The notes under the pieces: model-generated
Databases searched by the model: none
Seen by the model: the letters and a program-made list of their open reading frames with translations, nothing else
What the model was told of the DNA's origin: nothing
Translations under genes and position numbers: made by a program
In this document: piece by piece, positions 39,753 through 46,020 of the stretch
Numbering within the stretch: the stretch's first letter is position 1
Layout: each line of letters opens with the position of its first letter
Assembly: GCA_039815185.1 (NCBI GenBank)
Contig: JBCBZT010000018.1
Coordinates: forward strand, 32,001-96,000
Length of the DNA stretch: 64,000 nucleotides
DNA from: Cyanobacteria bacterium P01_A01_bin.123
GTDB lineage: Bacteria > Cyanobacteriota > Cyanobacteriia > Phormidesmidales > Phormidesmidaceae
Direction of reading: 5' to 3'

Positions 39753-42062
39753 TTAACGGATAACTTTCATATCAGGTTGAGGCATATCGGTCTGAGGTAT
39801 ATCGGGTTGGGGCGATCGCTCATCATCTGCCGTCGCTTCGCTGACTGAGCGGCGGGGTTGTTTGGGGCGCGGTGTCCGCAAGCTCTCTACGGTGGGCGCT
39901 TGAATGCGAACCTGCACTGCTGAGGGTTTACCCGTGCCATAGGTAAGACCATAGCTTTTGGCTAATAAGCTGTACCACATAGCTGGCCACAGGGGTTCCA
40001 ACCATGCCTGTTGGCGATGCAACCAGTTGGGAAACCAGCTCAAGCACCAACTCAGCAGGGCACTAGTGGTAAAGGTGAGATAGCTGCCCACCCATCGCAC
40101 CATATCAACAGGGCCAGCTAACTGCCAAATCCAGCCCAGTAAAGCTGGGTTTTGACTTGCGGCCGTTAGCGCCATGCGGTTAAATTCTGGCCAGGTTGCC
40201 CGATCTTTAATGAATCGATTGGCTACATCGGGTGATTGTTGCCCCAACACTCCAAAAAAAGTGTTGAGCATGGAATTGATCCGTTGGGGGGGAATAAACT
40301 CATGGGTGGGCACCATCATGCCCCTTGAAAATAGCCAGGTGACGGCGATATTACTTTGGAAAGCTCGAATTTGATTGAGATGGCGATCGCGCAGCAAATC
40401 ATAGCGTAGTGCAGTATCGAGCAGTTCCGTCAATCGGGGGAGATTCCTCACTAAGGAACCAAAACCCGTAAACACCAACGGTGATTGTAGCGAGGCCGCA
40501 TCACCGATGGCAACCAGGCGATCAAAGGCGACGGTGCGTTCTTCTGCACGGGTACTAAAGTGTCCTGGGATGTAGCCAAATGTGGGTTTACGCCAAGTCA
40601 GTTTGTCGAGATCGCAGCGACGATACTCGGGCAAAATGTGGAAAAAGTCCTCGTACATTTCCAGTAGGGAACCCGGGTTCTCAGGATTAACTTGATGATA
40701 GTGAAAAAGGTAAACTGTGAGCTCATTGTCACGGCCTGGAAACAGCTCCCAAATGAGTTGCCGTCCGCGGGAAATATCGCCGTGACTGAACAATACATCT
40801 CCATAGTCTGAATTCCATACCTCTGGAGCAATTCCCCCCGAAATACAGGCTCCCACGGTAGGACAAACACTATCAAAGGCACGCCCGCCGTTGAGTTGCC
40901 ACGCAATCGGAGAGGCCGTACCCATGGCATCGACCAGCAGTCTCCCCTGAATGCGATGCTGCGTTTGGCGATTGCTCTCCTGGGCTGGCTCAACCCCTTC
41001 GGGTGGTTTACGCCAGTACTCACCGCGATGTCGAGTGTGTACCATTACCCCGTCCTGATCGATTTCGGCCCAAAGAAAGTCGGTTTCATCTAAGATGATG
41101 CCCCCAGCCGCCGTGAATTTTTCGCCACAGAATTTTAGGAGCTTTTCAGAATCAATGGCAATATTGAGCACCGTTGGGGTATGTAAAGTGGGCGCTTGGG
41201 CAGCAACCGGATTATTGGCATCAAAAAACTTGTTGAATCCGTCTTGGTATTCGTGGGCAATGAGGGCTTCAAACTCCTCGCTACTAAAAAGGCCTAAGTC
41301 AATTAGAGACTGAAACTCCTGGCGCGAGATGTTCCACTCCCGGTTCATGCGGCCGAAGGGTAACCGCTCAATCAACAGCACCCGGTGTCCTAGAGTGGCC
41401 ATCACAGCAGCATGGATAATCCCTAAAGCACCTCCGACATAAATCAGGTCAAATGGGGTTGGGGTAGCCTCAGGCAAGGTTGATTGAGGCCTCTTGTTAA
41501 CAACAAATGGAATTTCAGTTTTAGGGTTAGGAGGCGCTTCCGAGGGCTTAAATAGGACAGGCTGGGGTTGCTTAGGCGATCGCACCGAGGCCCGCCATCG
41601 CTGTTCCCACCAGTAAACTCGCTGCAAGTCTTGCTCACCATTGGGCATCCGTTGGAAATAGTGAACGGTTTTTGGGTAATGCGGTTGGAGTGCCTCAAAG
41701 ATCGACTGCTGGCTCAAATCGACCGTCGGAGGAGCAGGATATTGATGAGGAAAGGCTTGGCGAATTTCATCGGTGAGCTGCGGGATCGTTTCTTCCAGCT
41801 TTTGGGCTGAGGCCTGCCAGCAGAAGGCTTTCAAATAGGTGGTGCGCTGCACAGACCAAACAAAACAGGCGATCGCAGCGGCAAGTTGTGGATTGGTTTG
41901 TCCATCGGGCTGACGAGTGTCTTGGGGTGGTTGGAGTGATAGGCGAATGCCATCGGTAGTGATAACTTTGTGGCCAATTTTCGGTTCAAAAGTATGGTGC
42001 AGCCAATGAATGACCGCTTCAGTATCAGGGGTTGGAATCTCTAAATAGAGAATTTCTCTCAT
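39753..42062 (-). CDS. cruA: CruA-type lycopene cyclase (FAD-dependent)
   Basis: ILYLEIPTPD N-terminus, YVGGALG, MNREWNIS, VCPTVG, GDAASLQSPLVFTGFGS. Confidence 0.8.
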   Translation of the reverse strand: MREILYLEIPTPDTEAVIHWLHHTFEPKIGHKVITTDGIRLSLQPPQDTRQPDGQTNPQLAAAIACFVWSVQRTTYLKAFCWQASAQKLEETIPQLTDEIRQAFPHQYPAPPTVDLSQQSIFEALQPHYPKTVHYFQRMPNGEQDLQRVYWWEQRWRASVRSPKQPQPVLFKPSEAPPNPKTEIPFVVNKRPQSTLPEATPTPFDLIYVGGALGIIHAAVMATLGHRVLLIERLPFGRMNREWNISRQEFQSLIDLGLFSSEEFEALIAHEYQDGFNKFFDANNPVAAQAPTLHTPTVLNIAIDSEKLLKFCGEKFTAAGGIILDETDFLWAEIDQDGVMVHTRHRGEYWRKPPEGVEPAQESNRQTQHRIQGRLLVDAMGTASPIAWQLNGGRAFDSVCPTVGACISGGIAPEVWNSDYGDVLFSHGDISRGRQLIWELFPGRDNELTVYLFHYHQVNPENPGSLLEMYEDFFHILPEYRRCDLDKLTWRKPTFGYIPGHFSTRAEERTVAFDRLVAIGDAASLQSPLVFTGFGSLVRNLPRLTELLDTALRYDLLRDRHLNQIRAFQSNIAVTWLFSRGMMVPTHEFIPPQRINSMLNTFFGVLGQQSPDVANRFIKDRATWPEFNRMALTAASQNPALLGWIWQLAGPVDMVRWVGSYLTFTTSALLSWCLSWFPNWLHRQQAWLEPLWPAMWYSLLAKSYGLTYGTGKPSAVQVRIQAPTVESLRTPRPKQPRRSVSEATADDERSPQPDIPQTDMPQPDMKVIR

Positions 42063-43506: not shown

Positions 43507-43935
43507 TTAAATCAAAGATTTTGCCATGGCAGTCTGAGCGTCCGAGGTGACGCGTCCGCTGCCTCGAAACGCTATGTTTTGCTGGTCTTCACTGGCATAA
43601 GCTGTAAGACGTCCACTGCCGCGATCTTGTTCGTTAGCTTTGATACTCGTGACGTACCAGTAGTTTGTCTCAGTGATATTTAACCCAGCTACGAAGCGGC
43701 CGCTACCGCGGTCGTCCTGGGCGGTCATGCGACCGCTGCCACGATTGGCGGGTTTGACCGGTTCTGCCATTGCCTTCATGCGACCGCTGCCACGAAAGAG
43801 CGTAGGGCGATGGGGGGAATGATCGATTTGGTTGACTTGGATTGATGAAGAATTGCTAGAAAAGCTACCAATGGCACCCAATATTGACATAATGCTGAGG
43901 GAACCAGCCCAAAGAAGTTTTGAAGAAGTCTGCAT
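43507..43935 (-). CDS. patX: PatX-like signal-peptide protein with five RGSGR motifs
   Basis: Hydrophobic N-terminus; RGSGR at aa 48, 65, 76, 105 and 124; lies between an FAD oxidoreductase gene and hetR. Confidence 0.85.
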   Translation of the reverse strand: MQTSSKLLWAGSLSIMSILGAIGSFSSNSSSIQVNQIDHSPHRPTLFRGSGRMKAMAEPVKPANRGSGRMTAQDDRGSGRFVAGLNITETNYWYVTSIKANEQDRGSGRLTAYASEDQQNIAFRGSGRVTSDAQTAMAKSLI

Positions 43936-43969: not shown

Positions 43970-43998
43970 CTTACGTGGGTTGCCCGTTCAGCTCAGGA
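43970..43998 (-). promoter_or_regulatory. DIF1-like promoter of patX
   Basis: Minus strand TCCTGA-N18-GTAAG; one mismatch from the DIF1 TCCGGA -35 element. Confidence 0.5.
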
Positions 43999-44097: not shown

Positions 44098-46020
44098 TCA
44101 TGCTTTGTGTTTGCTGAGTTGGAGCGTGTTGACGCGCAGCCATGACCCAGATGGATTCCACCAGCCTGTGACGGTAATGGGTTGGGAATTGGATAACTGT
44201 TTGAGAACTTGCTCGATGCTGGGACGCAAGGTGACTAAAGGGCAAGGATCGAGTAAGCCGTCCAGGGTCGGCTGTATCAGGGCATATTGTTGGGGGTCGA
44301 TGCGCTGAAATAGGCCGCTGACAGACTGGTAGTTTGGGGTTTTGGTATTGTCGTTGAGTGATGGGGTGGATAGCGTGGCTGCGTCATGGGAGCTACGCTG
44401 TCTCTTGAGGGCGATCGCCGCCTCATCTGTAGCTGACATCGATGGGGCGAAGGCGTTGTCCCACCCCTGCTTGGGATAGTGCTCAGGAAAATTCAAATAG
44501 TGTTGCTGCTGGGCCAGCCAAGCTTGAGGATTATTAGATAGATTGAATAAAGGAACTACGGCTGAAGGGGCTAACGGATCATTCAATAATGCGCTTTGGA
44601 GCGACCGGATTGATAAGGCGCGGGGTTGCTGATTGCCCTCAACGCAAAGCGCTGCTGCCATGCCAGCTGCTTGGCCAATTAGGAGCACGACAGGTTGTAG
44701 GCGGGTCGCGCCGTTGGCCAGATGACTGACAGATAGATTTTTGTCACACACTAAGAAGCCATCAATGGCTTCAGGTACGAGGGCACCGTAAGGGATGGCG
44801 AAAGGCGTGCCAGTCCATCGTCCCCCCCAGCGGATTGATTTGGATCGCAGCGGATAGTCAACCCCTGGATAGTGGTGATCGTTGGTATAGTTACCAATGG
44901 CGATCGCGTTGATGTCTCCTGCTGAATTATGAGGCAAGGTGGCTACGGCACCCTCGCTCAGCGGCAGAATGTCGATTTCTGTGACGGTGGATAGACCCTG
45001 AAGACGGCGGCTTTCACGGTAGTAGGGCATCAAGCCAAAGGCACCGCCGCCTAACTGCCCTGGCCATTGGGGAAACAGATCGGTTGCTAAGCCATAGCGT
45101 TGTCCAACGTGTTTTTGAATATAATGTGCGAAGCCCTGGCTGTGGGCGTGGGCTGATTGTAGCCAGTCTTGGCGAGTAGCGGCGTCTGCCACTAATTGTT
45201 GGAGATTATGGCCATAGTCATTACCGCGTATGGGCCAATTAATCATGAAACGATTGCCAGGTAGCCGCCCATAGTTAAGAAAGGTCGTTGCCCCATGATT
45301 CGCCCAGGCACCTCCGAATTGAGCTAAATCAATCCCCTCAGGAAGGGGAATTTCTGGCGCGATCGTCCTCTCAGTCTGGTCTTCTCTCCCTGCGGCATCG
45401 CCAAAATCTTGCATTACCACGACCCATGTGGGAGCTTGTACGGGATACTTATCGGCGATCGCGGCTAATGGATCACTCAAATCGCTTAAATCTGCTGGGG
45501 CACTGGGCTCTTGCCAAACATGCCGATCTTCCCAACCCCAGCGATAGGGAATTTCGCCTAGGGCCAGCAGATCGCCCAACTCAGTGCCGTCTAGGGTGAT
45601 TTGGGCATAGATCGTATAGTCAGAAAATTGAACGCCCACGACGCGATCGCCCTGACGCAATACTTCTTGGGGCACCTGATGGGCAATCCAATAAAGATTG
45701 GGTAGTGCCTTTACCCAATCTGTAAAAATACCTGCGCCGATGGCCGGGTCAAAATTAAAAAAACTGACCCAGCCGTGGTCTAATCCTGCCGGGTGGCGCG
45801 CTTCCAATGCGTCTAGAAAGGCTCCCCAAAGCCCCGTTTGCCATGCTTCCAGCTCATTACCGTCGGGTGCCGACACCCCTGCTGCAGTGAGCATTCCCCC
45901 CAGCCAGCTAAACTCACTGACTAGGATGGTTTGGGCACCCCGCCGAGCGGCTTGGATGGCAGCTGCTGTACCCCCTGTGCCACCGCCCACGACCAAAACT
46001 TCTGTAGAGAGGGTTTCCAT
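44098..46020 (-). CDS. FAD-dependent oxidoreductase
   Basis: VLVVGGGTGG, LGGMLT, DGTELGDL, PYYRESRRL, NGATRLQP. Confidence 0.9.
   Translation of the reverse strand: METLSTEVLVVGGGTGGTAAAIQAARRGAQTILVSEFSWLGGMLTAAGVSAPDGNELEAWQTGLWGAFLDALEARHPAGLDHGWVSFFNFDPAIGAGIFTDWVKALPNLYWIAHQVPQEVLRQGDRVVGVQFSDYTIYAQITLDGTELGDLLALGEIPYRWGWEDRHVWQEPSAPADLSDLSDPLAAIADKYPVQAPTWVVVMQDFGDAAGREDQTERTIAPEIPLPEGIDLAQFGGAWANHGATTFLNYGRLPGNRFMINWPIRGNDYGHNLQQLVADAATRQDWLQSAHAHSQGFAHYIQKHVGQRYGLATDLFPQWPGQLGGGAFGLMPYYRESRRLQGLSTVTEIDILPLSEGAVATLPHNSAGDINAIAIGNYTNDHHYPGVDYPLRSKSIRWGGRWTGTPFAIPYGALVPEAIDGFLVCDKNLSVSHLANGATRLQPVVLLIGQAAGMAAALCVEGNQQPRALSIRSLQSALLNDPLAPSAVVPLFNLSNNPQAWLAQQQHYLNFPEHYPKQGWDNAFAPSMSATDEAAIALKRQRSSHDAATLSTPSLNDNTKTPNYQSVSGLFQRIDPQQYALIQPTLDGLLDPCPLVTLRPSIEQVLKQLSNSQPITVTGWWNPSGSWLRVNTLQLSKHKA

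Follow-up and report, generated by a model that had tools for sequence, protein, structure and literature searches.

A predicted multi-core patX gene beside hetR in a cyanobacterium that probably forms no heterocysts

An open reading frame (ORF) that carries the RGSGR motif five times just before hetR raises the question of what it encodes, whether all of its motif copies matter and on which target they act. The ORF was found in a stretch of 64,000 nucleotides from Cyanobacteria bacterium P01_A01_bin.123 (the window), and it was examined together with the rest of that genome and with hetR loci from its own family, the Phormidesmidaceae, and from other cyanobacteria.

The five-motif ORF and its locus

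The original prediction had described a 142-aa ORF with a hydrophobic N-terminus and five exact RGSGR motifs, and this was confirmed at the position given in Table 1. The prediction gave no strand; the ORF exists on the minus strand only, and the plus-strand reading contains many stops. Its placement directly upstream of hetR also held, as both genes lie on the same strand with 258 bp between the patX ORF and the hetR start. The ORF sits between an oxidoreductase gene and hetR, which is the slot of the single-motif genes in other filamentous cyanobacteria. Scanning all six frames of the genome (8.09 Mb) gave 78 RG(S/T)GR motifs, 5 in the patX frame and 73 occurring singly elsewhere, and the chance expectation is about 0.0006 per 142 codons; the five motifs of this ORF are therefore not a chance occurrence. 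No PatS- or HetN-like gene was seen among the inspected part of the other 73 motifs, and a C-terminal RGTGR on contig C43 was discarded as chance because it is antisense and inside an epimerase gene. Copies 1 and 2 share their codons within a 20-nt exact repeat and copies 3–5 differ synonymously, as had been noticed before, and a search for a tandem array across the ORF found none.

Table 1. Features of the patX–hetR locus in the window
Feature	Position	Strand	Basis or remark
patX, 142-aa precursor with five RGSGR (P0001)	43507..43935	minus	ORF translation and census of relatives
Putative Sec signal peptide, about residues 1–27 (Lys 6, hydrophobic core 7–25)	43855..43935	minus	hydropathy only
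RGSGR copy 1, residue 48	43780..43794	minus	F before, M after
RGSGR copy 2, residue 65	43729..43743	minus	N before, M after; codons as in copy 1
RGSGR copy 3, residue 76	43696..43710	minus	D before, F after
RGSGR copy 4, residue 105	43609..43623	minus	D before, L after
RGSGR copy 5, residue 124	43552..43566	minus	F before, V after
DIF1 / sigma-HetZ-type promoter, TCCTGA (-35), 18 nt, GTA (-10)	43972..43998	minus	starts 63 nt before patX ATG
hetR, 309 aa	42319..43248	minus	NF009718, 543 bits (cut-off 489)
FAD-dependent oxidoreductase (PF12831), usual upstream neighbour of patX–hetR	44098..46020	minus	

The mean Kyte-Doolittle hydropathy of the precursor was 1.67 over residues 7–25 and 2.04 over residues 13–23, and an N-terminal hydrophobic stretch, judged by hydropathy only, is common to 91 of 95 Phormidesmidaceae relatives. 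The protein (P0001) matched no family of Pfam or NCBIfam at the usual thresholds. With the equivalog model NF047413 (heterocyst_PatX, cut-off 30 bits) it scored 9.6 bits and the protein of PCC 6406 scored 12.1 bits, while 23 of 38 multi-motif proteins matched this model weakly (E up to 1, best 1.9e-6). We put the score of P0001 below the cut-off down to a failure of a model built for single-motif proteins, and P0001 is classed as PatX by its motif, N-terminus and position, not by NF047413. The best NF047413 match on contig C76 (16.6 bits) was set aside as chance, as it overlaps another long frame. PatS is very short and ends in ERGSGR, whereas P0001 has 142 aa with all its motifs internal; HetN has a short-chain reductase fold, to which the lack of any Pfam or NCBIfam match in P0001 does not correspond.

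Upstream of the ATG lies a DIF1-type promoter, which is read by sigma-HetZ (PMC13342950; PMC7377430) and for which the consensus was taken from PMC13342950, both as far as the accessible text of these papers goes. Its TCCTGA hexamer has one mismatch to TCCGGA, as in Leptolyngbya BL0902. Of 94 Phormidesmidaceae loci, 53 have the pattern TCCTGA-N18-GTA at a distance of 55–70 nt from the ATG, whereas 200 shuffles did not produce it once; a slightly looser pattern was found at 36 of 51 single-motif loci outside the family. The genera g3, g14 and g16 keep the hexamer with GAA at -10, and most g18 loci keep it with a spacer one base shorter, so the strict count of 53/94 understates the conservation. 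The scan for sigma-70 promoters and terminators stayed at chance level.

The FAD-dependent oxidoreductase gene was found at 61 of the 102 Phormidesmidaceae loci and at 16 of the 60 named loci with long flanks; we found no evidence of its action on PatX, and it also flanks single-motif patX. Downstream of hetR, at 39753–42062 on the minus strand of the window, a 769-aa protein with a weak flavoprotein-type match is encoded, which adjoins hetR in 9 of 102 Phormidesmidaceae loci as fetched with short downstream flanks. Taken together, the motif, N-terminus, position and promoter supported the earlier naming of the product as PatX, and on sequence grounds the ORF is the patX of this organism in a multi-core form.

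Motif number across hetR loci

In the Phormidesmidaceae, the family of the window genome, 155 of 173 genomes gave a hetR match. The census covered a subset of these matches, namely 102 hetR loci (22 plus 80 chosen across genera), and included two ORFs cut by contig ends. Ninety-seven loci had a hetR-adjacent ORF with RG(S/T)GR, and 95 of these ORFs carry 2–9 motifs: the counts were none at 5 loci, one at 2, two at 29, three at 35, four at 16, five at 8, six at 3, eight at 2 and nine at 2. Three of the five motif-less loci lie at a contig edge and the other two are second hetR copies. The comparison set of 88 other loci (8 from other families and 80 named records) had one motif at 55 loci, none within the flank at 29, and three or four motifs at 4. 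These four multi-motif loci are all named records; the HetR of three of them (L036, L073 and L074, the last from Leptolyngbya sp. PCC 6406) falls among the Phormidesmidaceae on the HetR tree, and the fourth (L037) was left out of the tree as a duplicate sequence. Counting RG(S/T)GR in the ORFs beside hetR thus showed several motifs to be the usual design of the Phormidesmidaceae, a branch of thin filamentous cyanobacteria, the single-motif form being typical elsewhere. Five motifs had been thought unusual, which did not hold, as 2–9 is the norm of this family and P0004 and P0155 are other five-motif proteins.

The loci L140, L141, L145 and L147 have 8–9 motifs in nearly pure 12-residue units, and their predicted PatX is the clearest polyprotein-like form. 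In two further proteins, P0029 (named Symploca sp., four tandem motifs) and P0148 (nine motifs), the N-termini are closest to single-motif PatX from outside the Phormidesmidaceae, which suggests that these two are probably independent motif expansions. The HetR tree, rooted on a distant paralog, separated the Phormidesmidaceae from the other records with a support of only 0.52, and it therefore does not show that the multi-motif state arose once. A DNA pattern for two adjacent motifs, run across the class on 401 genomes, was discarded because its reversed-pattern control matched as often.

HetR, the host and the fate of the motifs

The presence of genes known from heterocyst patterning and nitrogen fixation was searched in the window genome. 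Heterocyst-glycolipid synthase models serve as heterocyst markers, and no match above cut-off to heterocyst-glycolipid-type synthases was found in the genome with two family models. The window HetR groups apart from the Nostocales (Calothrix) records on the tree, and a full nif cluster (G000:C29:85900-103500) with nifH above cut-off is present. The host is thus probably a diazotroph without heterocysts, in agreement with what had been supposed for this strain. The nif cluster contains an apparent fused nifE-nifN frame of 983 codons, the name being judged from the translation. A hetZ gene above cut-off lies on contig C99, and a second hetZ-like gene (G000:C92:221269-222384) scored 505.7 bits, under the cut-off of 550. 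Furthermore, the genome contains PF02113 (PatP-type) peptidase genes, one of them a 494-codon frame at E 8e-96.

The residues that contact the peptide have been described in the Anabaena HetR structure (PMC4649674, accessible text), and alanine at these positions is reported there to weaken peptide binding. The window HetR keeps all of the published PatS-contact residues (R223, E253, E254, D256, D270 and D278 in Anabaena numbering), and E253, D270 and R223 are kept in the adjacent HetR of all 99 Phormidesmidaceae sequences. A second hetR-like gene of the window genome (G000:C93:17661-18563) is 53% identical and has no RG(S/T)GR ORF beside it; its product keeps R223, E253, D256, D270 and D278, with A in the place of E254. 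Two g12 genomes (L112 and L113) likewise contain an additional close hetR copy (74%) that lacks an upstream RGSGR gene. In the g4 loci (L027, L030, L134-L150), which have 4–9 motifs, HetR has S254 in all 18 sequences, and in the two-motif g18 loci (L171-L190) N occupies positions 256 and 278 in each of the 20 sequences. The idea that more motifs offset a weaker HetR site fits g4 and was rejected, as it fits neither g18 nor the window genome, where the site is intact and there are five motifs; this comparison rests on one lineage each. The idea that more motifs titrate more hetR paralogs was also rejected, since g4, the genus richest in motifs, showed a single hetR match in each of the two genomes seen.

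Export followed by cleavage into several peptides, as proposed originally, came out as the best model, by analogy with the single-motif PatX of Nostoc. According to the accessible text of PMC12756182, export of Nostoc PatX is required, PatP cuts PatX, and the hexapeptide binds HetR at 88 nM. The same text reports that full-length PatX devoid of its signal did not interact with HetR in a two-hybrid assay, and that it blocked heterocysts only when the peptidase was co-expressed. In the HetR structure the free amino group of the peptide is held by E254/D256, its C-terminal carboxyl lies next to R223, and longer peptide N-termini clash (PMC4649674, accessible text). The HetR site thus wants free peptide ends, so internal motifs must be cut on either side. 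In E. coli, the site of PatP cleavage was mapped to 27 residues before the motif (PMC12756182, accessible text), which makes release of the exact hexapeptide an assumption even in Nostoc.

The flanks of the Phormidesmidaceae motifs were described, as counts and not as tests, the kin not being independent: I, L, V, F or M directly follows 286 of 313 motifs, against 19% in the spacers. A hydrophobic residue after the motif reaches at least 70% in 15 of 16 genera, genus g8 having 0/4, and in single-motif PatX from outside the family the same position is mostly a stop, R or C. A or S stands two residues before the motif in 70%, and the residue immediately before it is variable (Y, D, H, F, E, W). 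We read these conserved flanks as candidate cleavage marks.

We thus favour, with a probability of roughly 0.6, a model in which the precursor would be exported and cleaved into up to five near-equivalent hexapeptides that inhibit HetR, with copy number setting the dose. By analogy with Nostoc, sigma-HetZ would transcribe patX, probably together with hetR; Sec would export the precursor, a periplasmic peptidase would cut it, and each released xRGSGR hexapeptide would bind the HetR hood and strip HetR off the DNA. The cuts may fall behind the small residue that stands two positions ahead of the motif and in front of the conserved hydrophobic residue that follows it, so that one precursor could yield up to five near-equivalent peptides, and copy number would then set how much inhibitor each transcript provides in a feedback loop of HetR, HetZ and PatX. 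Such a loop would control something other than heterocysts, the published guess being filament growth or fragmentation, and the peptides probably reach the second, unlinked HetR paralog too.

The main evidence against this model comes from Leptolyngbya BL0902, where the expression changes caused by a patX deletion were for the most part independent of the hetR beside it, and where the transcriptome of the patX-hetR double deletion resembled that of the patX deletion and not that of the hetR deletion (PMC11298460, accessible text). This result would be explained if the peptides of an exported multi-core precursor had as their main target something other than the adjacent HetR, either a HetR paralog or an unrelated receptor. 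Such a target would also accord with the three hetR-like genes reported for BL0902 in the accessible literature, with the paralog of the window genome that keeps five of the six contacts, and with the g18 HetR, which lost two acidic contacts while two exact motifs were kept in its PatX. Against such a target stand E253, D270 and R223, intact in every adjacent Phormidesmidaceae HetR, the position of patX beside hetR across the class, and the single hetR match in both genomes checked of g4, the genus with the most motifs. We consider a mainly non-adjacent target unlikely, though it is the most serious of the alternatives; because there are three hetR-like genes in BL0902 and the paralog of the window genome keeps five of the six contacts, action through paralogs could reconcile the BL0902 result with HetR-family inhibition.

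The original prediction had also allowed for multivalent binding of HetR by the intact protein, in which an uncut or only signal-cleaved precursor would fill the two clefts of one HetR dimer or bind more than one dimer at once. The dimer does have two clefts (PMC4649674, accessible text), two motifs are the floor in the Phormidesmidaceae, and the peptide binds as a beta-strand that a hydrophobic residue after the motif might extend. This part of the prediction nevertheless found no support, as the structure wants a free N- and C-terminus: a peptide extended at its N-terminus clashes, and binding depends in part on the C-terminal carboxyl (PMC4649674, accessible text). The inactivity of signal-less full-length Nostoc PatX unless a peptidase is co-expressed (PMC12756182, accessible text) points the same way. 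HetR is moreover cytoplasmic while the precursor looks exported, and unstructured spacers of 9–60 aa with no conserved length suit cleavage rather than a fixed two-site geometry, which leaves multivalent binding quite improbable.

Whether all motif copies matter was judged from their conservation. In 95 distinct full-length Phormidesmidaceae proteins, 315 motifs were exact and none was one residue off, which upheld the earlier claim of selection on the RGSGR copies; these counts are likewise descriptive. Copies within a gene differ by 2–4 synonymous bases on average, and the spacers, measured from motif start to motif start, are poorly conserved and variable in length. It is conceivable that only one motif matters and that slippage or recombination produced the rest, which would persist for a short time as neutral or spare copies. 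The identical DNA of copies 1 and 2, the fresh 12-codon tandem units of g4 in 4–9 copies and the loss of single motifs in several orthologs would fit this. It is, however, as improbable as multivalent binding, given the absence of one-mismatch motifs (0/315) despite saturated synonymous change and divergent spacers, the conserved positions of two to three motifs throughout genera, and the five-slot layout, which is still present in P0004 and P0002 where identity is about 55%. The conservation points to every motif copy being under selection. The constraint is not perfect: one copy in P0002 has decayed to RGRGR, 120 database matches contain 6 one-mismatch copies beside 408 exact ones, whole motifs were lost in six aligned orthologs (L115, L116, L122, L126, L185 and L187), and the g8 flank and the g18 HetR depart from the rule. 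A putative signal peptide followed by repeated cores resembles multi-cassette peptide precursors, but it is highly improbable that P0001 is a repeat protein of structural, adhesive or RiPP type with no part in HetR signalling, in view of the exact PatS/PatX motif, the patX position, the sigma-HetZ-type promoter, the PatX model as the sole weak match and the lack of adjoining modifying enzymes apart from the oxidoreductase, whose gene is a neighbour of single-motif patX as well.

Published record and comparison with known systems

The literature search, which did not reach the 2018 work of Elhai and Khudyakov, found no account of multi-motif PatX. Those authors reportedly defined PatX over many genomes. 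The genomes of PCC 6406 and Nodosilinea nodulosa predate 2018, so the multi-motif design may already be visible in that work. The accessible parts of PMC7761841, PMC7476756 and PMC12669612 contain nothing on multi-motif PatX, and PMC5812504, in its accessible part, surveyed heterocystous strains only. One multi-motif member already appears as patX in the literature: GFS31_32390 of Leptolyngbya BL0902 was given this name and deleted (PMC11298460, 2024, accessible text), and the database protein named GFS31_32390 (P0168) has three motifs. The same accessible text does not comment on motif multiplicity, its two mentions of RGSGR being in the reference list. In public databases the multi-motif proteins are labelled hypothetical, some of them with a precomputed PF28278 match.

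For Nodosilinea nodulosa, Nodosilinea E11, Leptothoe kymatousa, Leptolyngbya cf. ectocarpi LEGE 11479 and BL0902, a 2025 survey that relied on NF047413 entered PatX as 0 (PMC12756182, Table S3, accessible part). The database proteins of these strains have 3 (P0057), 3 (P0059), 5 (P0155), 6 (P0133) and 3 (P0168) motifs, respectively. The patX-hetR pair thus occurs more widely than the survey had inferred, and the published PatX distribution is corrected accordingly. Furthermore, the natural dose series of 2–9 cores bears on the role of HetR and PatX in filaments without heterocysts and could be used in a tractable strain for which deletions of patX and hetR exist, and the conserved motif flanks, as a candidate cleavage signature, point to a PatX cleavage rule. 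More tentatively, and with the odds rather against it, the family may hold a bacterial morphogen polyprotein, a design undescribed in print. One exported precursor would be cut at a conserved signature into several inhibitors of the HetR family, with the motif number (2 to 9, at least three independent expansions) as an evolvable dose dial and with first-residue variants that possibly differ in stability, uptake or HetR-paralog preference. The whole would drive an unseen cell pattern in heterocyst-free filaments.

Among the known systems, PatX (Asl2332) of Nostoc/Anabaena PCC 7120 resembles P0001 in its small size, hydrophobic N-terminus, internal RG(S/T)GR and DIF1-type promoter, and both hosts have an intact HetR binding site and a PatP-type peptidase. 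Asl2332 has one HRGTGR in 77 aa whereas P0001 has five RGSGR in 142 aa, and in the host of P0001, unlike in PCC 7120, heterocyst glycolipid synthase genes were not found. The patX of BL0902 (GFS31_32390) is likewise directly upstream of hetR with a TCCTGA promoter in a non-heterocystous host; its protein has three motifs against the five of P0001, and in both a hydrophobic residue follows each motif. PatS and HetN of Anabaena PCC 7120 share the RGSGR core, which in these two inhibits HetR after processing, but PatS has 17 aa with a C-terminal motif and HetN is reductase-like, each with one motif and no Sec signal. Multi-core precursors such as yeast alpha-factor, neuropeptide and cyanobactin precursors combine a signal or leader with repeated active cores that have conserved flanks, and P0001 is likened to them by analogy only, with no sequence relation claimed.
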